DNA from: a virus
Direction: 5' to 3' (one strand)
Virus record (IMG/VR): IMGVR_UViG_3300045988_021320
DNA: 25,643 nt
The notes under the pieces were generated by a model. The model ran no database searches, was not told where the DNA came from, and worked only from the letters and a program-made list of their open reading frames with translations. The position numbers and the translations under genes were made by a program. This document shows, piece after piece, positions 1 to 25,643 of the stretch. The stretch's first letter is position 1; the number at the start of each line of letters is the position of its first letter.

Positions 1-55
1 ACCGATGAGTTTTCTAGAGATAAATAATGCGTGACACAGTTTATTTTACACTACC
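1..55. repeat. Left inverted terminal repeat (55 bp)
   Basis: Bases 1-55 equal the reverse complement of 25589-25643 at every position (checked base by base). Identity stops at position 56 vs 25588. Confidence 0.95.
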
Positions 56-73
56 ATTCTTACTAAGGAATTT

Positions 74-742
74 GTGAATAAACAAATTACAATGTTGTCT
101 ACAATTTCAATAGATACTTTCAATGCTAATCCTATTCTTTGCGCTGCTCTTAATCTTAAAACTCCTGAAGAGTTTGTACGCTATAATGCCTATCAAGCTA
201 TTGGTAGAAGTATAGTTACTTCTATGGGTTTTTTAGTGCAGAATCTTCTTCTTTATTCTAATGAATATATCTTTGATGGTAAGACTTATGAAGAAGGTGA
301 TAAGACTAAGTTTGATTTAGTTATAGACCGATTAGGGGAGGTTAAATCATTCTTAGAAATTAAGAGTGGATTTAATGATATGGATGCAGGGCAAGTTAAA
401 CACTATGCCGATGAAATAAAGTTAGTAGAAGAAGCTGGAAATAAAGGATACATAGGTATCACCTATGGAAAGAAGGATGATAATACTGTAACTGCTGGCT
501 TACTTAAAACTTACGTTCCTAATTGGGAAGATAAGACTTTAGTAGGTAAAGAGCTTTGGGATTTTATCTCTGAGAATGAGAACTACCATACCATTCTGAT
601 AGAAAGTATAGATAGTGTAGCTAACACTACTCTTCAGAATGTTAGTATAGTGCAAAAGATTGAGGATAAAATAGCAGAGCTAATAGAGGTATTTCATACT
701 AACTATAATAGTCTTAGTGAGTATTATGAATCACTTTGGTAA
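74..742 (+). CDS. PD-(D/E)XK nuclease, type II restriction-endonuclease-like (possibly TdeIII/Eco47II-like); no adjacent methyltransferase
   Basis: 222 aa ORF with D81-x13-E95-I-K97 (KFDLVID...FLEIKSGFN). The upstream GRSIVTSMG segment resembles the S-x2-T-x2-G element I recall from TdeIII-type REases (from memory, not searched). Start is uncertain: GTG at 74 or ATG at 92. Confidence 0.55.
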   Translation: MNKQITMLSTISIDTFNANPILCAALNLKTPEEFVRYNAYQAIGRSIVTSMGFLVQNLLLYSNEYIFDGKTYEEGDKTKFDLVIDRLGEVKSFLEIKSGFNDMDAGQVKHYADEIKLVEEAGNKGYIGITYGKKDDNTVTAGLLKTYVPNWEDKTLVGKELWDFISENENYHTILIESIDSVANTTLQNVSIVQKIEDKIAELIEVFHTNYNSLSEYYESLW

Positions 743-2389: not shown

Positions 2390-4204
2390 TCATTTAAACA
2401 CTATCTTAGGTCTGTAAACTATGAATCCTTTTGTTACTTTGCTATCAATTCTCTTAGTAGATGCTTCACAATCAAACCAATTAGTTAAGTCGGTAGCTTT
2501 GACTTTATCTATAATACCTACAGTATTATATGCTTCACTTATCCAGCCTTTAATATCAGCACTACTATAGAATCCTGTTTTAATTCTCTTACCTAGTATT
2601 TGTGCTGCTTTAGTATCTTTGTTCTTATCGGATTCCCAGTTAATTAAAGCTGCTTCTACTGCTGATTTTGAATATCTAAGGCTTCTAACTTTATCTACAC
2701 CTAATCTATGATAAGCATTAACTATTAAAGGCTGTATCTTAGCTAAAGTATTAGTTTCTGTAGCAATCACCATCTTACTAATAAGTTCTGCATATCTAAG
2801 GAAAGCATCTTTAAATGACATCTTCTTACCAGCCTTCTTCATTGAATCGGTAATCTTTTCTACAGTAATATCAGTAGTAAGCATATCATTCTTATTATAT
2901 GCACTTCTAAGTGCTATACCATCTTTATAAATAGACTGTTCTAATCTGAATGTAAATAGGTCTAGCTTCACTAACATATCATTTACAAAGTAATTACCTT
3001 CCTTATCCTGCATTACATACTGACTATTAAGCATCTTCTTAGCCATTTCTTTAGCTTTGTCGCTGCTTTTATTGATAGCACTAATAATTTCATTAGCACC
3101 TTCTATATTATCATTAGTACGCTTTACCATATCTTCATAAGTAATATCCAGTTCTATATTTCTGTTTCCTGTAGTATTAAAGATATGTACCAGTAAGTTT
3201 CTAAATGGGTTTGATTCAGTTCTAATTCTACCTGCTATCTGGTATATATCAGTAGAAATATCCAGCAGGGTATTAGTGTTAGTACTATTACTAACTACAA
3301 AGCATAAAGCCGAATCACTAAAGTAATCTGCACCTTCAAAGGATTTACTAGTAATGAAGGTAAACGGCTTATTCTCACTTCTGCTATTAGTAATGGTATA
3401 TCCTGCTAATTTGGCTCTATTACTTTCATTATCTGCACATACTATCTTTACTTCTTCATTACTAAGGTCACAGTATTGTAAGATGGATGCTATATCTGTA
3501 ACCGAATTTATAAAGAAGAAGGCTTCATAGCTTCTATTACCATTTATTTCTATAAACCCATCTTTCTTATAAGCATTGATATAGTTAGCAGCCTTAATAT
3601 ATGGCTTATTAGTTAAGTCCAGTTTAACTATCATTGTATCAGTTTCATCCCAAACAGCTTCTATTTCTTCTACATCTGCTAAACAGCTAGGTTTAAAATC
3701 AGCTTGAATAGGAGTAGCTGACATAAAGCAGAATGATTTGTAGCTTCTAAAGGTACTTAATACACCATCTATAGCCTTACTTCTGTAGCTATAAGCCTTT
3801 AGTAAGATGTGATATTCATCTACCAGTAACCTGTAATCAGTTGGTTCTAAGTATTCAGCTAATTTACCTATCTTATCATAAGTACACATAATTTTCTTAG
3901 TTCCTTTACCTTCTGCATATTTCTTTAATTCCTTCTTTACTGAATAAGAGAATACACCGAATAAGCCGAATACAGTTTGCTCTTTACCATCATAGTTAGT
4001 AATAGTGGCTACACCAGCTTCACTAAGACCAGTCTTATTAGTAATAAGTTCGGTAGTGGGTACTGCTATTACATAGTTTTCATTATTGAAAAGAACTATA
4101 GTAGTTCCACCACAACCAGTAACAACTTTATTAAAGATGCAGTTATAAGGTAAATCTGATAGGTTTAAATAGCCATTGCTTGAATTGATTAATAATGTTT
4201 TCAT
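2390..4204 (-). CDS. SF2 (DExH-type) helicase, probable replication helicase, with an unassigned ~270 aa C-terminal region
   Basis: Ordered helicase motifs: I-like VVTGCGGTT (aa 27-35), II VDEYH (128-132), III SAT (162-164), V TSKSFEGADY (285-294), VI QIAGRIR (322-328). Confidence 0.75.
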   Translation of the reverse strand: MKTLLINSSNGYLNLSDLPYNCIFNKVVTGCGGTTIVLFNNENYVIAVPTTELITNKTGLSEAGVATITNYDGKEQTVFGLFGVFSYSVKKELKKYAEGKGTKKIMCTYDKIGKLAEYLEPTDYRLLVDEYHILLKAYSYRSKAIDGVLSTFRSYKSFCFMSATPIQADFKPSCLADVEEIEAVWDETDTMIVKLDLTNKPYIKAANYINAYKKDGFIEINGNRSYEAFFFINSVTDIASILQYCDLSNEEVKIVCADNESNRAKLAGYTITNSRSENKPFTFITSKSFEGADYFSDSALCFVVSNSTNTNTLLDISTDIYQIAGRIRTESNPFRNLLVHIFNTTGNRNIELDITYEDMVKRTNDNIEGANEIISAINKSSDKAKEMAKKMLNSQYVMQDKEGNYFVNDMLVKLDLFTFRLEQSIYKDGIALRSAYNKNDMLTTDITVEKITDSMKKAGKKMSFKDAFLRYAELISKMVIATETNTLAKIQPLIVNAYHRLGVDKVRSLRYSKSAVEAALINWESDKNKDTKAAQILGKRIKTGFYSSADIKGWISEAYNTVGIIDKVKATDLTNWFDCEASTKRIDSKVTKGFIVYRPKIVFK

Positions 4205-4729: not shown

Positions 4730-5221
4730 TTACAGTATGCAAAGTGATGGATGAATGAACTTAAAGTAAAGTCTCTTGTCACTTCTTTCCACTAGACCAG
4801 CTTCTAAAGCTGAATATACTGTATTATGTTGTACCCCTATTTCGTGAACTATTCTATTCAGAGATAGGTCTACAATATTGGATGCTATTCTAGACCAGCA
4901 TTTGAATCGGATTAAGAAGCCGATTACTAATCTATCTACATCTGTATCTAACAGGCTGCTATCTATGGTTACAAAGAACTTGGTAGGTTCTGTATAGCTA
5001 TACTTATTACTGCATCCAGTTCTATCTATTGTTAGGTTGGCTACTTCTTCAAACTTCTTTAGATGGTTAAAGATGGTAGTTTCACTAACACCTGTTATTC
5101 TTACTATATCTTTAATAGTACTATCTGGATTCTTACTAATGGCTACTAATGTGCAGAAGTAAGTAAATGCTTCATTATTGGTTAATGCTTGTAATACTGG
5201 TATGCTTAATTTAATGTTCAT
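4730..5221 (-). CDS. Winged-HTH DNA-binding protein (possible replication initiator or regulator)
   Basis: The track ORF runs to 5278, but that extension lies inside the HNH gene. The ATG at 5221 (MNIKLSIPVL...) is the likely start. HTH-like segments: IKDIVRITGVSETTIFNHLKKF and LNRIVHEIGVQHNTVYSALEAGLV. Confidence 0.5.
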   Translation of the reverse strand: MNIKLSIPVLQALTNNEAFTYFCTLVAISKNPDSTIKDIVRITGVSETTIFNHLKKFEEVANLTIDRTGCSNKYSYTEPTKFFVTIDSSLLDTDVDRLVIGFLIRFKCWSRIASNIVDLSLNRIVHEIGVQHNTVYSALEAGLVERSDKRLYFKFIHPSLCIL

Positions 5222-5507
5222 AGTGATGTTCTTTTGCGTGGCACTCTTTACAGATAGACATAAGGTTATTAAAGTCAAATGCTTTGGCTAGTCTTTTAGT
5301 GCCAGTATAATTCATAAAGGAATCTATATGGTGAATATCTTCTGCTGGCTTAATGATGCCTTTGGCTAAACAGAGTTCACATAATGGCTGCTGCATTAGC
5401 TTTGCCTGCCTTAATTCCTTCCATTTGGTAGATTGGTATATCTTCTGTCTTTCTTCCCTGTTAAATGTTCTGGAAGGCTGCTTATTCGGTTTCTTTAGGT
5501 ATGGCAT
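5211..5507 (-). CDS. HNH endonuclease (phage terminase-associated type)
   Basis: CELCLAKG...EDIHHI...NLMSICKECHAKEH is a classic Cys-box plus HNH arrangement. 98 aa. Confidence 0.85.
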   Translation of the reverse strand: MPYLKKPNKQPSRTFNREERQKIYQSTKWKELRQAKLMQQPLCELCLAKGIIKPAEDIHHIDSFMNYTGTKRLAKAFDFNNLMSICKECHAKEHHYEH

Positions 5508-5985: not shown

Positions 5986-6253
5986 TCTTGAATTTAATGT
6001 ACTGGTTAATGGTTTCCCTGTTATAATTGAAGAAGTCTTTTAGTATGGCTTCTATCAGTGGTGCTTTATCTGATTTGTGGTTAGTATGTTCATCTATAAT
6101 ATCAATATTTCTATTAAAGAAATCTGCTATTATCAATCTTAGTAGTTTAGACCTGTCTTTGCCTAGTAATTGCTGTAGTTCTGTTAGTAACAGGTCGGTA
6201 TTTAGGTCTATTTTAGCTTTAATTTCTATTGGGTAATTACTTCTTCTTTCCAT
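5969..6253 (-). CDS. Ribbon-helix-helix-like small regulator (first gene of the leftward operon)
   Basis: PIEIKAKIDL (strand), LLLTELQQLLG (helix) and DRSKLLRLIIADFF (helix) fit the RHH pattern. Positioned next to the divergent control region. Confidence 0.4.
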   Translation of the reverse strand: MERRSNYPIEIKAKIDLNTDLLLTELQQLLGKDRSKLLRLIIADFFNRNIDIIDEHTNHKSDKAPLIEAILKDFFNYNRETINQYIKFKNDKTT

Positions 6254-6275
6254 AGTTTAGCCTTTAATTGTATTA

Positions 6276-6283
6276 CAAATTTA
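6276..6283 (-). promoter_or_regulatory. Candidate -7 box TAAATTTG for the leftward early operon
   Basis: Plus-strand caaattta is the reverse complement of TAnnTTTG. It ends 23 nt upstream of the ATG at 6253. Confidence 0.45.
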
Positions 6284-6327
6284 CTAACATCTTAACAGAC
6301 TTCCAAAGAAGTAATTCACATTCTTTA

Positions 6328-6349
6328 ATAATCATATTATAGTGATTAT
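6328..6349. promoter_or_regulatory. Inverted repeat ataatca-N8-tgattat in the divergent control region (candidate operator)
   Basis: Perfect 7 bp arms at 6328-6334 and 6343-6349, between the leftward and rightward operons. Confidence 0.3.
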
Positions 6350-6407
6350 AAGTCAATTAGAGCCATTACATAGCTTTATAAATTATAAAAATTAAATAGA
6401 CTATAAT

Positions 6408-6785
6408 ATGATAAATTACACTATTCCAAAGGACATTGAAAAGGATGCTAAGGTATATATGCAGAATGTACTAGAACAGCTAGATAGTACTGGTATGTTA
6501 GAGAATGTGGATAGTGCAGCTTTAACGATGCTGGCTAGAAACTACAGTATGTTCATTAAGGCATCCAAACAGTTAGAAGATGAAGGTTTGACTGTTACCA
6601 GTGATAGGGGTAACATTGCACCGCACCCAGCTATTAAGATTGCTAAAGATGCTCAAACGCAAGCTATGAAAGTTATGCTGGAGTTCGGACTAACAGCTAA
6701 GGCTAGAACTAAATTGCCTAAAGTAGAACAGGACGGGTATAACCCATTTGAGCAGTTTATAAAGGAAGGAAAGGAAACTAGGTAA
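6408..6785 (+). CDS. terS: Terminase small subunit (P27-family-like)
   Basis: 125 aa ORF directly upstream of and overlapping terL. The C-terminal PHPAIKIAKDAQTQAMKVMLEFGLTAKARTKL matches the P27-type GLTP.sR.kL signature. Confidence 0.85.
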   Translation: MINYTIPKDIEKDAKVYMQNVLEQLDSTGMLENVDSAALTMLARNYSMFIKASKQLEDEGLTVTSDRGNIAPHPAIKIAKDAQTQAMKVMLEFGLTAKARTKLPKVEQDGYNPFEQFIKEGKETR

Positions 6786-8413
6786 TGAATACCAAACTTT
6801 ACTATGAATATTGTAGTAGGGTTCTTAATGGTGAAATAATAGCTGGTGAAACTATTAAGCTGGCTTGTAAGAGATTCCAGAATGACCTGCAAAGGGATGA
6901 TTTGGAATTTAAAGAGGACAAGGTAGATAGAGCCATTCTGTTCATTAGCACATTGAAGCATTATACAGGTAGACATTCTGGTAAACCATTCACTTTAGAA
7001 GGATGGCAGCAGTTTATAATAGCTAATATAGTTGGATTCTACTGGAAGGGAACTACTACCAGAAGATATACTAGCAGCTATATAGAAGTAAGTAGAAAGC
7101 AGGGTAAGACAGCTTTAGCTGCTGCTTTATGCTTGTATTATTTAATAGCTGATGGTGAAGATGGTGCAGAAGTATTATTGGCTGCTAATAGTAAAGAGCA
7201 GGCTAAGATAGCCTTTGATATGTGTAGCAAGTTTAGTAAGGGATTGGATTCTAAAGGCAAGTATCTTACAGCCTATAGAGCTGATATTCTGTTTAACCTT
7301 ACTAATTCCAAGTTGAAAGTATTGGCTGCTGATGATAGTAAGCTGGATGGATTTAATGCCAGCTTTGGTTTATTGGATGAATATCACGCTGCTAAGAATA
7401 GTAAAGTACGTGATGTTATTAAGTCCAGTATGGGGATGAGGATGAACCCGCATCTTTGCACTATTACTACTGCTGGCTTCGATAAAACTTTACCCTGTTA
7501 CCAATTAAGAACCGTAGCTATAGAGGTGCTTAATGGCTTAAAGGTAGATGATGAAATGTTTATAGCTATCTATTCTTTAGATGCTGATGATGATTGGAGA
7601 GATGAAAAGAACTGGGTTAAATGTGCACCAAACTTGGATATTACAGTAACTTCCAAATACATTAGAGGACAGGTACAACAGGCAATAAATAACCCTGCTG
7701 ATGAAGTCGGAGTTAAAACTAAGACTTTGAATTTATGGTGTGACAGTTCTAATGTGTGGCTACCAGAGGACTATATTATTAAGTGCAGTCAGGAAGTAGA
7801 CCTTAATAAGTTTGCTGGTATGGATTGCTATGTAGGTGTGGATTTGGCTGCTACTTCGGATTTGACTGCTGTAGCCTACTTAGTAGTACTGGATGGTACT
7901 TACCACTTCAAAACACATTACTATCTTCCAGAATCGGCATTAAAGGATAAGGCAGATAAGGAACTTTACAAATACTGGAAGCAGCAGGGGTATCTTACTG
8001 TTACCAGTGGTAATGTTACCGATTATGACTATATAACTACTGATATGCTTAGATATGCTGATGTAGTTAATATCCAGTCTGTAGGATATGACAAGTATAA
8101 TGCTACACAATGGGCTATAGATTCTACAGAGCAGGGATTACCATTAGAAGAATATCCACAAACACTAGGTAACTTTAATATGCCTACTAGAGAACTGGAA
8201 AGGCTGATACTATCTGGTAAGGCAGTTATTGATAACAATGAAATAAATAGGTACTGCTTTAGAAATGTTACTTTGAAGTCTGATTATAATGGTAATGTTA
8301 AACCGAATAAGGCAGTAGATAAGAAGAAGATAGATGGAACTATAGCAATGATACAGGCTTTAGGTATGTATCTGAGAACACCACATTACACAAATGAAAT
8401 ACTGACTATTTAA
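6785..8413 (+). CDS. terL: Terminase large subunit
   Basis: 542 aa. Contains GKPFTLEGWQQFII, a Walker-A-like SRKQGKT, and LLDEYH. Nuclease half with VGVDLA...D. Positioned between terS and the portal gene. Confidence 0.9.
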   Translation: MNTKLYYEYCSRVLNGEIIAGETIKLACKRFQNDLQRDDLEFKEDKVDRAILFISTLKHYTGRHSGKPFTLEGWQQFIIANIVGFYWKGTTTRRYTSSYIEVSRKQGKTALAAALCLYYLIADGEDGAEVLLAANSKEQAKIAFDMCSKFSKGLDSKGKYLTAYRADILFNLTNSKLKVLAADDSKLDGFNASFGLLDEYHAAKNSKVRDVIKSSMGMRMNPHLCTITTAGFDKTLPCYQLRTVAIEVLNGLKVDDEMFIAIYSLDADDDWRDEKNWVKCAPNLDITVTSKYIRGQVQQAINNPADEVGVKTKTLNLWCDSSNVWLPEDYIIKCSQEVDLNKFAGMDCYVGVDLAATSDLTAVAYLVVLDGTYHFKTHYYLPESALKDKADKELYKYWKQQGYLTVTSGNVTDYDYITTDMLRYADVVNIQSVGYDKYNATQWAIDSTEQGLPLEEYPQTLGNFNMPTRELERLILSGKAVIDNNEINRYCFRNVTLKSDYNGNVKPNKAVDKKKIDGTIAMIQALGMYLRTPHYTNEILTI

Positions 8414-12524: not shown

Positions 12525-12838
12525 GAGCAGGAACATTACATTATCCTATTACCATACAAGAACCTGTAGCTATTAAAGATGGCTATGGTGCTAACTCTAT
12601 TGATTGGAGAGATGTTATTAGCACTAGGTCTAATGTTACTTATAACAGTGGTAATAGACAGAATCAGAATAATGAAATAGTTCATTCTTATACTGTAACC
12701 TTTACTGTTAGATATTATCATAAGGTAAATGAGAATATGAGAATCCTTTGGAATGGAAAGAAGTACAGGATTCTTAGCATAAATCCAGAATTATATAAGC
12801 AATCAACCACTATAGTAACTGAATTGATAAATGAATAA
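12521..12838 (+). CDS. Head closure / head-tail adaptor protein
   Basis: 105 aa. The pattern ...YTVTFTVRYY...MRILWNGKKYRILSI is typical of head-tail joining proteins. Confidence 0.7.
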   Translation: MRAGTLHYPITIQEPVAIKDGYGANSIDWRDVISTRSNVTYNSGNRQNQNNEIVHSYTVTFTVRYYHKVNENMRILWNGKKYRILSINPELYKQSTTIVTELINE

Positions 12839-13331
12839 CATAGAAGTAGATGCCAGACAGGTAGTTTCTATGTTTGCGGATTTGACTAGTAGGCAGCAAA
12901 GGCAGGTTTATAGAAGTGCTTTGAGAAAGGGTGCTGGTATTCTGGCAACAGAAACTAAAAGACAACTAAGACAGGCTTTAGGTAGGGCGGCTTCCAGTAG
13001 AAACTGGTGGAATGGTAGAACTTTAGCAGCAGGGGTTAAATCTAATGCTGACCGAAACGGAGAAGAAGCTAAAGTACACATTATGGGGGACTTTAGATTG
13101 AAGTTCTTTGAAATGGGTACTAGAGTTAGAAGAACCACTGGTAGTAATACTGCATCTGTTAGAGGTCGGAATCCAATAAGAAGGCAGAGAGTATCAGCCA
13201 ATAGAGGTAATATCAATGCGGCACATTTCTTTAGAACAGCTAAAGCCAATAAGGAAAGGGAAATCTTTGATAATATGGATAACCTTATAAGCCAGTCAAT
13301 TCAGAGAATAGCTAATAGAAACAGACGATGA
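12831..13331 (+). CDS. HK97 gp10-like tail-completion/neck protein
   Basis: Position, size (166 aa) and basic, helical N-terminus. Confidence 0.5.
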   Translation: MNNIEVDARQVVSMFADLTSRQQRQVYRSALRKGAGILATETKRQLRQALGRAASSRNWWNGRTLAAGVKSNADRNGEEAKVHIMGDFRLKFFEMGTRVRRTTGSNTASVRGRNPIRRQRVSANRGNINAAHFFRTAKANKEREIFDNMDNLISQSIQRIANRNRR

Positions 13332-22399: not shown

Positions 22400-22600
22400 A
22401 TGACAAAGAAGATGAAATTAAATGTACAGTTGGTGGTAGCAGCCTTATTGATATTGGTGGGCTGTGGGCTACTGATTGCAGGATTTACAGTAGCACCATT
22501 AGGAATTATCCATAGTAGTGTACTGGTAGCTTTTGGTGAAACTTGTACCTTTGCTGGTGCTCTATTCGGAGTAGATTATCATTATAGGGTAAGACAATAA
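22400..22600 (+). CDS. Holin-like small membrane protein
   Basis: 66 aa with two hydrophobic segments (LVVAALLILVGCGLLIAGF and VLVAFGETCTFAGALFGV) and a charged C-terminus. Sits at the end of the late operon. Confidence 0.5.
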   Translation: MTKKMKLNVQLVVAALLILVGCGLLIAGFTVAPLGIIHSSVLVAFGETCTFAGALFGVDYHYRVRQ

Positions 22601-22607
22601 ATAAATT

Positions 22608-22645
22608 TAGCCTGTAGTCCTTTATTGGATTGCAGGCTATTTTAT
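22608..22645 (+). terminator. Rho-independent-type terminator after the late operon
   Basis: tagcctgta (22608-22616) pairs with tgcaggcta (22631-22639) in a 9 bp stem including one G-U pair, followed by ttttatt. Confidence 0.65.
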
Positions 22646-22653
22646 TAGCTTTG
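22646..22653 (+). promoter_or_regulatory. Candidate -7 box TAGCTTTG, only 4 nt before the ATG at 22658 (leaderless transcript likely)
   Basis: Exact TAnnTTTG match immediately after the terminator. Confidence 0.4.
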
Positions 22654-23467: not shown

Positions 23468-23499
23468 TAACTTTGCACCAGTAAAACAAATAACTGGTG
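23468..23499 (+). promoter_or_regulatory. Candidate -7 box TAACTTTG (23468-23475) abutting the inverted repeat caccagt-N10-actggtg (23476-23499)
   Basis: Exact TAnnTTTG match. A perfect 7 bp dyad starts at the next base, 35 nt before the ATG at 23534. Confidence 0.4.
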
Positions 23500-23533: not shown

Positions 23534-23785
23534 GTGATAACAATGATAAGAAAAGAAGAAGTAGCAAAGTATGGAACTTGGTTTGGTAAATCAACCCCAG
23601 ACCACATTATTAAAAGATGTGATGAACAGATAGCCAACTGTCAGAAATGGATTCTGAATCTAGAGCAGCTAAAGCAGGAACAACTAGTTAAGAAGGCAGA
23701 AGGTCATAAGGAAGAATTAAAAGCTATGTTGGCTGCAATGGGTGAAGAAGAAAGAAGTAATTTTATTAATGGTTTAAACAGATGA
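23534..23785 (+). CDS. Hypothetical coiled-coil protein
   Basis: 83 aa. First gene of a four-gene unit. Overlaps the next gene (ATGA). Confidence 0.55.
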   Translation: MITMIRKEEVAKYGTWFGKSTPDHIIKRCDEQIANCQKWILNLEQLKQEQLVKKAEGHKEELKAMLAAMGEEERSNFINGLNR

Positions 23786-24135
23786 GTATGGATACACAAA
23801 CAAAAGAATTAATCCAGCTTTGGAATTTACTGGAATTGGGGTTTGAATTAAACCTTAGATATGCTGATACAGGCATTATTAATGAAGGTGATGAAGATGT
23901 AGTTATTAATGTTACTGCAATAGCTGAAACTGCTGAACAGTGGAATGAACCTATAGAGCCTAAACAGGTATCTATGTTTGAAGCTGTTGGTCTAGTAGCT
24001 GTAGTCAGTTTGGTTAATGATTATATGGAAGAACCTGTTGCATACAAAAGAGGTTCTGTTAATTCATTAGTAAAGCTGATTGGAGATAAGCTATTACAGA
24101 CTTTTGAAGGGAAACAAGTTAAAATAGATTTTTAA
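23782..24135 (+). CDS. Small strongly acidic protein
   Basis: 117 aa. By my count about 20 Asp/Glu versus 9 Lys/Arg. Confidence 0.55.
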   Translation: MSMDTQTKELIQLWNLLELGFELNLRYADTGIINEGDEDVVINVTAIAETAEQWNEPIEPKQVSMFEAVGLVAVVSLVNDYMEEPVAYKRGSVNSLVKLIGDKLLQTFEGKQVKIDF

Positions 24136-24156
24136 ATCAATAGCCAGTTATCGGTA

Positions 24157-24843
24157 ATGGTAGCTGGCTTTAAATACTTATGGTGTATGATAGTAGATAG
24201 TATGACTTATGAAGAAATAATATCTGAGTTTAAGAAGGACTGGGAGAATTATTTTCCAAATGTTCTGCCTAGATTTATGAATGATAGCAAGTATCGGAGA
24301 TATATGCTTAAAGAAGCCAAGGATAATGTTCCTGTATTCTTTAAACCAATAGAACTAACTAGTAATAGAGGAAATAAATATATTTTACAGATAAACAGTA
24401 AAGGTAGGTCTGATTACAAAAGAGGTGGGCTAATGTTTTTATTGTTTATGTACTATCATAGACCAGAAGGTATATATGCAGTAATGAGATGTCCGCAATC
24501 TAGCTGGGATTTGAAGGAAGCATCTTATAATATCTATATTCCGCATCTGTTTGATAGGTACAGAGAACGAGAACTACAGGACATTCATAAACCAAAGATG
24601 CAGACTATTATAGAGTTCTTTAAGAATAACGGGGTAGGTAGATATATAGATGTGACTAATGATAAGTATGATGATAATATATTCTTCACTACTACTAATG
24701 GCGTATTACTAGGAGGTAAGTTAGATGATGGGAATACTTTATTAAGGACTTATATAACCTTTGATATGCTTAGAGGTGAGCAGATTGATGATAAGGAAAG
24801 ATTAATAGCTAGAGTAAAAGAGTATATAGAGAATGAACAGTAA
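24157..24843 (+). CDS. Hypothetical protein; C-terminal half vaguely resembles a DUF4258/RelE-like small nuclease fold
   Basis: 228 aa. The motif IPH130LFDR134YR136ER138 is followed by ...NIFFTTTNGVLLGG...NTLLRTYITF. Start is uncertain (24157, 24187 or 24202). Confidence 0.5.
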   Translation: MVAGFKYLWCMIVDSMTYEEIISEFKKDWENYFPNVLPRFMNDSKYRRYMLKEAKDNVPVFFKPIELTSNRGNKYILQINSKGRSDYKRGGLMFLLFMYYHRPEGIYAVMRCPQSSWDLKEASYNIYIPHLFDRYRERELQDIHKPKMQTIIEFFKNNGVGRYIDVTNDKYDDNIFFTTTNGVLLGGKLDDGNTLLRTYITFDMLRGEQIDDKERLIARVKEYIENEQ

Positions 24844-24865: not shown

Positions 24866-25528
24866 ATGAGAATATTAGAAGGAAAAGAATTAGATGATGC
24901 TTTAAAGCAGATGCAAGAATGGGAAGCTAAGAAAGCTAAAGCTATTGAAGATGCTTTCCAAAGAGGGATAGCAACAGGTGAAGATATTACTACTTTATTA
25001 TGGACTTATACAGATAGTAATTTCAGATGGGAACTATTTGCAGACCTTGCTGAGAAGGGCAAACTATCTGATGAAGCCTTTAATAAAGGACTGGCTATAG
25101 CTTGGACTGAGGGCAGAGGTACAGGGGATTTTAGGGCTATACAATACTTTATGAGGTGTAAGAAGGAATTAGTGATGAATGAAGAAGAACTAGCCTATTA
25201 TAATAGTTTGCCCGATAAGGTTACTTTGTATAGAGGTTGCAGTATAGAAGAGTATGAAGATGAAGATAGCTGTTTCGGTATTTCTTGGACTACCAGTAGA
25301 GATGTAGCAGAGTTCTTTGCATTTAGAAATGAGCAGGAAGATACTGCTGTATATTCTATAGAGGTTGATAAGGAAGATATAAAGGCTGTATTCTTATCTA
25401 GGAATGAATTTGAAGCTATATGTTTTGGCGGTGATGAAGCCACTTTGGTTACAGATGAACCAACAGAACTATATACTAATTATATGGAACGAAAGAAGCA
25501 GGAACTAGATGAATTTATGAATAAGTAA
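24866..25528 (+). CDS. Candidate ADP-ribosyltransferase (R-S-E class) with a helical N-terminal domain
   Basis: VTLYR123G, then CFGIS140WTTS144RDVAEFFAF, then SRNE181FE183AICFG. The order, local context and STS-to-ExE spacing fit the Y-R-G / G-x-S-T-S...A..F / E-x-E-hydrophobic signature of C3, VIP2/iota and T4 Alt/Mod-type ARTs. Confidence 0.5.
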   Translation: MRILEGKELDDALKQMQEWEAKKAKAIEDAFQRGIATGEDITTLLWTYTDSNFRWELFADLAEKGKLSDEAFNKGLAIAWTEGRGTGDFRAIQYFMRCKKELVMNEEELAYYNSLPDKVTLYRGCSIEEYEDEDSCFGISWTTSRDVAEFFAFRNEQEDTAVYSIEVDKEDIKAVFLSRNEFEAICFGGDEATLVTDEPTELYTNYMERKKQELDEFMNK

Positions 25529-25588
25529 TGAATGAAGGGGAATGGGGTAATATTTTAAGCTGATAGTGCTTTAAACCCCAGCCTACCC

Positions 25589-25643
25589 GGTAGTGTAAAA
25601 TAAACTGTGTCACGCATTATTTATCTCTAGAAAACTCATCGGT
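25589..25643. repeat. Right inverted terminal repeat (55 bp)
   Basis: Reverse complement of 1-55, with 55/55 identity. Confidence 0.95.

Follow-up and report, generated by a model that had tools for sequence, protein, structure and literature searches.

The last gene of IMG/VR virus record IMGVR_UViG_3300045988_021320, a stretch of 25,643 nt referred to here as the window, raises the question whether it encodes a phage ADP-ribosyltransferase (ART), as had been proposed from the nucleotide sequence before any database search. Our analysis makes an enzyme of the R-S-ExE type (arginine, serine and a Glu-x-Glu pair) the best reading of this gene, because of its invariant triad, the topology of the predicted model, the structural neighbours of that model and an in-register match to ModA/ModB of phage T4; the same four observations give the earlier proposal computational support. 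In full, we consider it rather likely that the product, hereafter the ART-like protein, is a compact stand-alone mono-ADP-ribosyltransferase of the R-S-E clade which acts in the cytoplasm and is carried as cargo for the modification of one specific bacterial or rival-phage protein.

The gene and its motifs

The gene is a 220-aa open reading frame (ORF) that runs from ATG to stop at 24866..25528 on the plus strand. All residues named in the original prediction were found where it had placed them: R123 (codon 25232-25234) within VTLYRG, S140 (25283-25285) and S144 within CFGISWTTSR (CFGISWTTSRDVAEFFAF), and E181 (25406-25408) and E183 (25412-25414) within SRNEFEAICF. The N-terminus is hydrophilic and, as judged from the sequence, carries no signal peptide. 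An antisense ORF inside the gene (25198..25443, 81 aa) was found to be without any support. The features of the gene are as follows.

24866..25528, plus strand: ORF of a predicted compact R-S-ExE ADP-ribosyltransferase, 220 aa, stop codon included in the span (ORF, homologues, motifs).
24866..25207, plus strand: N-terminal all-helical domain, aa 1-114 (DSSP of the model, profile coverage).
25208..25465, plus strand: ART-like core, aa 115-200 (model with a predicted local distance difference test score, pLDDT, of 94; Foldseek; ModA/ModB hhalign).
25229..25237, plus strand: Y122-R123-G124 on beta1 with the predicted Arg for binding of nicotinamide adenine dinucleotide (NAD), aligned with L-Y-R73-G74 of T4 ModB (conservation, hhalign).
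25250..25252, plus strand: E129, six residues past R123, in parallel to R6/E12 of TreTu (140 of 151 members; PMC9825190).
25283..25291, plus strand: S140-W141-T142, which corresponds to the STS motif on beta2 and precedes the helix A148-E-F-F-A152 (conservation, hhalign).
25400..25414, plus strand: R179-N-E181-F-E183, an R-x-E-x-E pattern like that of the ADP-ribosylating turn-turn (ARTT) loop, with E183 as first residue of beta5 and predicted catalytic Glu (conservation, model, hhalign).
25466..25525, plus strand: amphipathic helix at the C-terminus, aa 201-219, found in some family members only (model, family alignment).

Conservation of the motifs in a large family

A collection clustered at 90% identity yielded 25 homologues of the ART-like protein, and a profile of 17 of these, run against 1.84 billion clusters at 50% identity, found at least 5,260 cluster representatives (E≤1e-3). 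R123, S140, E181 and E183 are invariant in the alignment of 17 close homologues. Conservation was then counted in 151 diverse family representatives of about 30-50% identity. Around the Arg motif Y122 is retained in 135, R123 in 149, G124 in 142 and E129 in 140 of these sequences; around the Ser motif G138 in 122, S140 in 146, W141 in 149, T or S at position 142 in 150, A148 in 150 and F151 in 143; and in the ExE region K169 in 137, R179 in 136 and both E181 and E183 in 146, the latter followed by V/I and then by I/L. Judged from these alignments, the conservation of the motifs is far above chance. The contexts on which the R-S-E assignment had been built thus hold for R123, S140, E181 and E183 (each in more than 96% of the 151 representatives) but not for S144, which varies between D, S, N and K across the family, so that the second motif is S-W-[T/S] rather than G-x-S-T-S or S-T-S.

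The short spacing between the first two motifs is likewise a family trait, the commonest gap between R and S being 14 residues and the distance from S to the catalytic E 42-48. The helical N-terminal domain is kept in most members from about aa 30 onwards, as seen from profile coverage, and possibly serves target recognition or regulation. One homologue on a Vibrio plasmid (L030, about 6001-6360) shows Y-R-A (R-A for R-G) and an Ala in place of the motif Ser; it may be a truncated call or inactivated.

Predicted structure and fold neighbours

AlphaFold modelled the full-length protein with a pLDDT of 88.8 and the C-terminal domain, using an alignment of 143 sequences, with 94.1. According to DSSP, aa 1-114 of the model are helical, and the core continues with beta1 (118-126), a short helix, beta2 (140-142), a helix (145-156) that carries A148 and F151, beta3 (160-168), beta4 (172-176), a loop, beta5 (183-186), beta6 (193-196) and a last helix. 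In the predicted model, the order of the strands is that of the ART core, and with R123 in beta1, S140 in beta2 and E183 opening beta5 the motif residues occupy the three canonical active-site positions described in PMC9825190.

When the C-terminal domain was compared with the PDB by Foldseek, 23 of the 50 top chains were ART folds (best E 0.063, probability 0.82), comprising TreX/TreTu, the ART-like part of CNFy, a diphtheria-toxin homologue, cholera toxin A1, PARP10/13/14, the PE-like toxin Hmx and CARDS. The full-length model gave a similar list of ARTs, with HopU1 and iota Ia in addition. As far as predicted models can be compared in this way, the enrichment of ART folds among the structural neighbours is very strong. 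Among the fold neighbours in BFVD were also several phage RIIB proteins ('protector from prophage-induced early lysis') with a probability of about 0.9; the model comparison suggests that RIIB may contain an ART-like domain.

Profile comparison with T4 ModA and ModB

As a large protein index gave only 3 ModA homologues, the ModA/ModB profile was built from 10 annotated phage records, those of T4 and nine T4-like phages, and comprises 12 sequences, one metagenomic homologue included. Alignment of the family with this profile by hhalign extended over 46-48 columns (P=1.8e-4 to 5.8e-4, probability 29-48%) and was in register: VTIYRG falls on L-Y-R-G of ModB with R123 on R73, GiSWT on V-x-S-F-S with S140 on the STS serine of ModA/ModB, and VAEFFA on x-A-R-x-F-A. 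R72 of ModB in the alignment numbering, which counts a translation without the start codon, is the published R73, a residue needed for catalysis in an enzyme pair that is cited as arginine-specific and R-S-EXE (bioRxiv 10.1101/2021.06.04.446905). As controls for the Arg/Ser match, the reversed profiles reached P=0.31 and 0.35 and the 40 column shuffles 0.066 at best. When the C-terminal halves were aligned apart, R-x-E-x-E-V-I came to lie on D-E-Q-E-x-M, which holds the E-Q-E of ModB, with P=0.016 compared to 0.042 for the best of 30 shuffles. Alignments with the lone ModA and ModB sequences were in register and without power. Based on the profiles, this apparent remote homology is the sole significant profile link of the family.

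Observations that weigh against an ART assignment

Several results count against the assignment and have to be set beside the evidence above. The full protein had no match in Pfam and NCBIfam at E≤10, including PF26816, the family of ModA, and among PDB sequences nothing relevant was found with the single protein or with profiles of 17 and 143 sequences. The probability of the hhalign match to ModA/ModB stays below 50%. All E-values of the Foldseek comparison with the PDB are ≥0.06, with template modelling (TM) scores of 0.35-0.43 and a high root-mean-square deviation, and the toxin chain within the TreX/TreTu complexes is unconfirmed, although the toxin-only entry 7zhl is also among the matches. 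R123 and S140 are separated by 16 residues, far fewer than in C3, cholera toxin (CT) or ModB. Of the 151 representatives, about one in four stops 4-8 residues past the ExE and has no beta6; truncated gene calls or inactivated members may be among them. Finally, all 23 mycobacteriophage and 2 Gordonia phage records in which the family occurs call the homologue 'hypothetical protein'.

The hints that Pfam does give for this family are ART families without exception, NarE and ADPrib_exo_Tox, and all of them are sub-threshold: the C-terminal domain touches NarE with E=0.12, and when 143 members were scanned singly ADPrib_exo_Tox was the top family by count (3 of 143, best E 0.034). Of the checks proposed with the original prediction, the profile search thus brought no significant Pfam ART match but the in-register alignment with ModA/ModB at the P-values given above, and the structure comparison returned the ART core topology and a neighbour list that is nearly half ART, but no E-value or TM score beyond the limits just listed. 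Neither of the two computational outcomes that had been named beforehand as refutations came about. The short spacing had been read as the sign of a compact member, and it has indeed turned out to be real and family-wide, with a precedent in the minimal toxin TreTu (PMC9825190). The short link between beta1 and beta2 is therefore not disqualifying, because TreTu, a proven ART of 112 aa, is similarly spaced.

Comparison with known ADP-ribosyltransferases

ModA/ModB and the ART-like protein are both phage-encoded, stand-alone proteins of about 200 aa in which a helical N-terminal part precedes the ART core, and they share L/I-Y-R-G, an S-x-S/T with A..FA after it and an E-x-E that leads into hydrophobic residues. 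The step from R to S is 17 in the ART-like protein (R123 to S140) and 26 in ModA/ModB (R72 to S98, alignment numbering), and the long insert of the latter between beta3 and beta5 is not found here; identity beyond the motifs is negligible, and PF26816 is not matched. The settings are different as well, since ModA/ModB are early genes of lytic T-even myoviruses near srd and modA.2, whereas the ART-like gene is cargo that ends a temperate siphophage after the tail-fibre and cargo genes.

The best structural neighbours of the model are TreTu/TreX (PDB 7zhl, 7zhm, 8s2m, 8s2n, 9gco), with which the ART-like protein shares a very compact ART core (about 110-130 aa) and a short link from beta1 to beta2. 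In both, a conserved Glu stands six residues past the Arg of beta1 (R6/E12 in TreTu, R123/E129 here), and in TreTu, where the NAD-contacting residues are R6, E12 and S25/H31 (PMC9825190), this Glu contacts NAD+. TreTu has an unorthodox site, a hybrid of R-H-h and R-S-E (R6/H31/W68) without an ExE strand, while the ART-like family keeps the canonical S and ExE. Moreover, Tre toxins form the C-terminal tips of Rhs proteins of the type VI secretion system and have an adjacent immunity gene; the ART-like protein stands alone, brings its own helical N-terminal domain and lacks a conserved partner. Cholera toxin A1, the heat-labile enterotoxin LT and NarE as well as the C3, iota and VIP2 exotoxins (Enterotoxin_a, NarE and ADPrib_exo_Tox families) show the same R-S-ExE triad with the same local contexts and are among the fold neighbours. 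The ART-like protein differs in that it has no signal peptide and reaches no Pfam gathering score, whereas these toxins are secreted enzymes with eukaryotic targets, in which 40-55 residues lie between R and STS.

Two further ARTs of mobile elements invite comparison. Bxa of Bacteroides stercoris, found in gut Bacteroidales, is like the ART-like protein a prophage ART; it has more than 800 aa, with the ART C-terminal to a MuF capsid-targeting domain, is part of a head-morphogenesis module and is flanked by the immunity genes Bsi and BAH, the latter an ADP-ribosylhydrolase (PMC11699363). These features were not found for the ART-like gene, which has no Pfam domain, and so no MuF, and lies about 13 kb downstream of the capsid gene. 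AcrIF11 (PMC12421852) is, like the ART-like protein, a small stand-alone ART on phages and plasmids without an immunity partner. It was not among the top 50 fold neighbours of the model and no sequence similarity to it was found. AcrIF11 is diphtheria-toxin-like and not an R-S-ExE enzyme. By analogy, AcrIF11, which modifies one specific defence protein, is a plausible functional counterpart, and in its setting the ART-like protein is nearer to ModA/ModB or AcrIF11 than to Bxa.

Proposed mechanism and alternative explanations

If the R-S-ExE reading is correct, Y122-R123 on beta1 together with S140-W-T142 on beta2 would grip NAD+ inside the split beta-sheet's cleft, E183 at the start of beta5 would steady the oxocarbenium intermediate after the departure of nicotinamide, and E181 of the E-x-E pair would place the acceptor for transfer of ADP-ribose. 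Characterised R-S-ExE enzymes usually take a protein arginine as acceptor, and the enzyme considered here is probably arginine-directed and cytoplasmic. The helical N-terminal half would probably pick the target, most likely one specific protein of the bacterium or of a rival phage, and the purpose may be host takeover, anti-defence or superinfection exclusion. We infer a specific intracellular bacterial or phage target rather than the action of a broad, promiscuous toxin, because there is no secretion signal and no immunity partner and because the family is spread over phages and plasmids.

That the protein is an NAD-using enzyme of ART fold seems to us quite probable. This broader estimate covers, besides the R-S-ExE reading, the case that fold and NAD+ use are retained in a protein that is not a protein-arginine transferase and either ADP-ribosylates DNA or RNA, as DarT, CmdT, Scabin, RhsP2 and TreThr do, or is a plain NADase. 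We regard this case as fairly unlikely. It would agree with the nearest structural neighbours, the fast-evolving TreTu/TreX/TreThr group, whose very different targets include Asp21 of EF-Tu and tRNA, with the near-invariant extra basic residues K169 and R179 beside the ExE loop, and with the DNA methylase, nuclease-like and plasmid-maintenance genes that adjoin members elsewhere. The E-x-E pair, however, is a hallmark of arginine-directed protein ARTs (CT, iota, VIP2, ModA/B, ART1-5) and is present in 146 of 151 representatives at both positions; the sole significant profile link leads to ModA/ModB, which modify proteins; and the adjacent immunity gene that would be expected for such an activity is not conserved. 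A toxin for abortive infection, encoded by the prophage, held off by its own N-terminal domain and triggered by a superinfecting phage so that the cell is killed or arrested, also presupposes ART activity and overlaps with both of these readings. We think it unlikely, but it keeps some weight because the gene lies in the cargo region beside toxin-antitoxin modules: this variable region at the prophage end holds conflict modules, with HicAB after the gene in the relatives L041-L047 and a YafQ/ParE toxin nearby in L014. A promoter-like site of its own downstream of a terminator and the two-domain build with a conserved helical N-terminal half would suit such a toxin, whereas homologues among right-arm genes of function unknown in cluster-L mycobacteriophages, and inside phage structural regions, fit a role in phage offence at least equally well, and no sensor or partner gene was found. 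The family also has matches to the PADLOC candidate system PDC-S15, which we rejected as a link since they are weak and touch only 2 of 143 members at E≥0.0015.

The case that the protein is no enzyme at all, with R, S and ExE serving structure or binding in a small alpha/beta domain whose likeness to ARTs is convergent or too remote for NAD chemistry, appears to us improbable. It gains from the fact that all database-scale statistics are sub-threshold, from the low TM scores, from the many members without beta6 and from the substitutions in the Vibrio plasmid homologue. What speaks for an enzyme is that R, S and both E, together with E129, K169 and R179, are near-invariant down to about 30% identity, a pattern typical of active sites and not of scaffolds, that an independently predicted model places the three motifs on precisely those three strands that form the ART active site, that the alignment with ModA/ModB is in register and better than all controls, and that ARTs are so strongly enriched among the structural neighbours. 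The R-S-ExE transferase accordingly stays our preferred reading.

Distribution of the family

By tblastn the family was found in 23 records of cluster-L mycobacteriophages (SEA-PHAGES-type) and in 2 of Gordonia phages, including Octobien14. Gp117 of mycobacteriophage LeBron retains VYRG, GMSWT and RGESEI, and the Octobien14 protein was also matched by the model in BFVD (E=2e-9, TM 0.67, aligned over 187 columns). Members on plasmids, all labelled 'hypothetical protein', come from Agrobacterium, Vibrio, Photobacterium, Mycolicibacterium, Selenomonas and Subdoligranulum. A search for a named or domain-fused homologue found no name and no Pfam domain among 53+25 homologue matches. In PHROG the ART-like protein is assigned to phrog_4776 and phrog_25265, both of function unknown. 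The family is therefore unannotated in every library searched (Pfam, NCBIfam, PHROG) and is spread on phages and plasmids of several phyla. No paper on this family was found, a result that does not cover the membership of the 'Mod family' named in a survey of viral ARTs.

Genomic setting

The window is a fragment of a siphophage, a prophage of gut bacteria, with genes for the small terminase, TerL, portal, HK97-type capsid, a tape-measure-like protein and a tail fibre on the plus strand, and, at the left, a block of minus-strand genes which includes a winged helix-turn-helix regulator and an HNH endonuclease. The phage is a temperate siphophage of Bacteroidales type in which the ART-like gene is conserved cargo at the extreme right end. 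Downstream of a terminator-like hairpin comes an ORF of 260 aa, and this is followed by a unit of four genes (83, 117, 228 and 220 aa), the last of which is the ART-like gene. The elements around the gene and at the contig ends are listed here.

1..55, neither strand assigned: inverted copy of the insertion sequence (IS) end found at the right, here at the left contig end (identity to the PV4-TP1 IS).
22608..22639, plus strand: terminator-like hairpin with 13-bp stem and T tail, marking the end of the structural (late) operon ahead of the cargo genes.
23468..23475, plus strand: TAACTTTG, which fits the Bacteroides -7 promoter consensus TAnnTTTG and lies in the 94-nt gap that precedes the four-gene unit (consensus match only).
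23534..24843, plus strand: three co-oriented upstream ORFs of function unknown (83, 117 and 228 aa), apparently one unit with the ART-like gene.
25529..25588, plus strand: conserved 3' untranslated stretch, GGGGAATGGGGT...AAACCCCAGCCTACCC, G-rich/C-rich, at the prophage right end.
25589..25643, neither strand assigned: outer 55 nt of an IS256-family IS, not phage (identity to the PV4-TP1 IS).

TAnnTTTG occurs in both short intergenic gaps, at 22646, where it lies 12 nt ahead of the next ATG, and at 23468; the 25.6 kb contain 17 matches in total. The 228-aa ORF (24157-24843), for which no Pfam, PHROG or PADLOC match was found, is polymorphic: it is absent in the relatives L035, L036, L038 and L041-L047, and in these the 117-aa ORF directly adjoins the ART-like gene, while the latter stays 87-99% identical. 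A conserved immunity or partner gene was not found in 12 varied contexts of homologues, and no ADP-ribosylhydrolase or macrodomain gene was present among the window ORFs scanned. In relatives with 69-92% protein identity the ART-like gene is the last gene of the prophage and is followed by chromosomal yebC and pheT or by a ComM-like Mg-chelatase gene. In the sub-lineage L041-L047 (e.g. L043, 6741-7364) the last six residues of the protein differ and HicA/HicB come next, then the host genes for a MutY-like protein, HU and RNase G; in L038 an IS66 element follows. The right end of the prophage is a hot spot for cargo and IS insertion. More distant members adjoin a DNA methylase and DUF4268, lie in a ParA/DnaB plasmid-like element, follow ISL3 or precede tail genes.

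The gene had been described as the last before a right inverted terminal repeat (ITR). It is indeed the last phage gene, but the supposed ITR is the end of an IS256-family element, and what lies here is the right end of an integrated prophage and not of a linear genome. The perfect 55-nt inverted repeat (1-55 and 25589-25643) is 100% identical to positions 12837-12892 of Phocaeicola phage PV4-TP1, beside an annotated IS256 transposase, and the imperfect terminal repeats of the IS itself are identifiable. A protein-primed linear genome bounded by ITRs was rejected, as the repeat is this IS end and has no counterpart in the relatives, which run into host DNA. In relatives from IMG/VR with 97-99% DNA identity, homology to the window ends exactly at 25588 and is followed by the short conserved TACTTTYYACGRMCTGTA and then by diverse host DNA, the TACTTTYYACGRMCTGTA stretch preceding at least four different host flanks. 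The contig is accordingly a prophage fragment between two inverted copies of the IS, or else the assembly broke at that place; the 55 nt of the repeat equal a common assembler k-mer (55). The element at 25529-25588, which is seen just past the gene in the relatives L001, L005 and L036-L040 as well, may represent the attR arm of an integrase that is not strict in its choice of site. An integrase was not recognised among the genes of the window, and a tRNA integration site was rejected as there is no tRNA. The 15-nt direct repeat AAACCCCAGCCTACC (780 and 25573) is unsupported as an att core, with a chance expectation of about 0.3 and the copy at 780 lying within a hairpin.

Some other genes of the window deserve mention. 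The HNH endonuclease gene (5211-5507, minus strand) lies divergently just upstream of the terminase genes (6408-8413, plus strand), an arrangement typical of HNH-assisted cos packaging. Just inside the left IS end, a 222-aa ORF (74-742, plus strand) matches the EcoO109I family of type II restriction endonucleases (Pfam E=6e-12); no methylase was seen near it. The largest leftward ORF (2390-4204, minus strand, 604 aa) has no Pfam or PHROG match and may encode a replication or recombination protein. A small hydrophobic, holin-like ORF at about 22410-22600 precedes the terminator.

Implications for phage biology

Only a few enzymatic tools are known with which a host is reprogrammed or disarmed, and phage ARTs, for example Alt, ModA/B, AcrIF11 and Bxa, belong to them. 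Phage R-S-E ARTs as a kind of protein are well known, and the compact family described here is a distinct one within this kind. It is possible, if doubtful, that the ART-like protein is the founding example of a very large (at least 5,260 clusters), immunity-free family of compact R-S-ExE ARTs borne by phages and plasmids from Bacteroidota, Actinomycetota, Pseudomonadota and Bacillota, which would serve as anti-defence or takeover factors and ADP-ribosylate a conserved bacterial target for which no such regulation is known yet. In practical terms the gene merits the annotation 'ADP-ribosyltransferase-like', and the contig should not be taken as a complete ITR-bounded genome. In a published survey, ARTs were found for only about 3% of siphoviruses (PMC9503650); a compact ART family that is overlooked by Pfam, NCBIfam and PHROG although thousands of phage and plasmid lineages carry it would, if confirmed, raise this estimate. 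Its members would be small enzymes without immunity genes, some of them in tractable phages such as LeBron and Octobien14, and their targets could expose new control points of bacteria.

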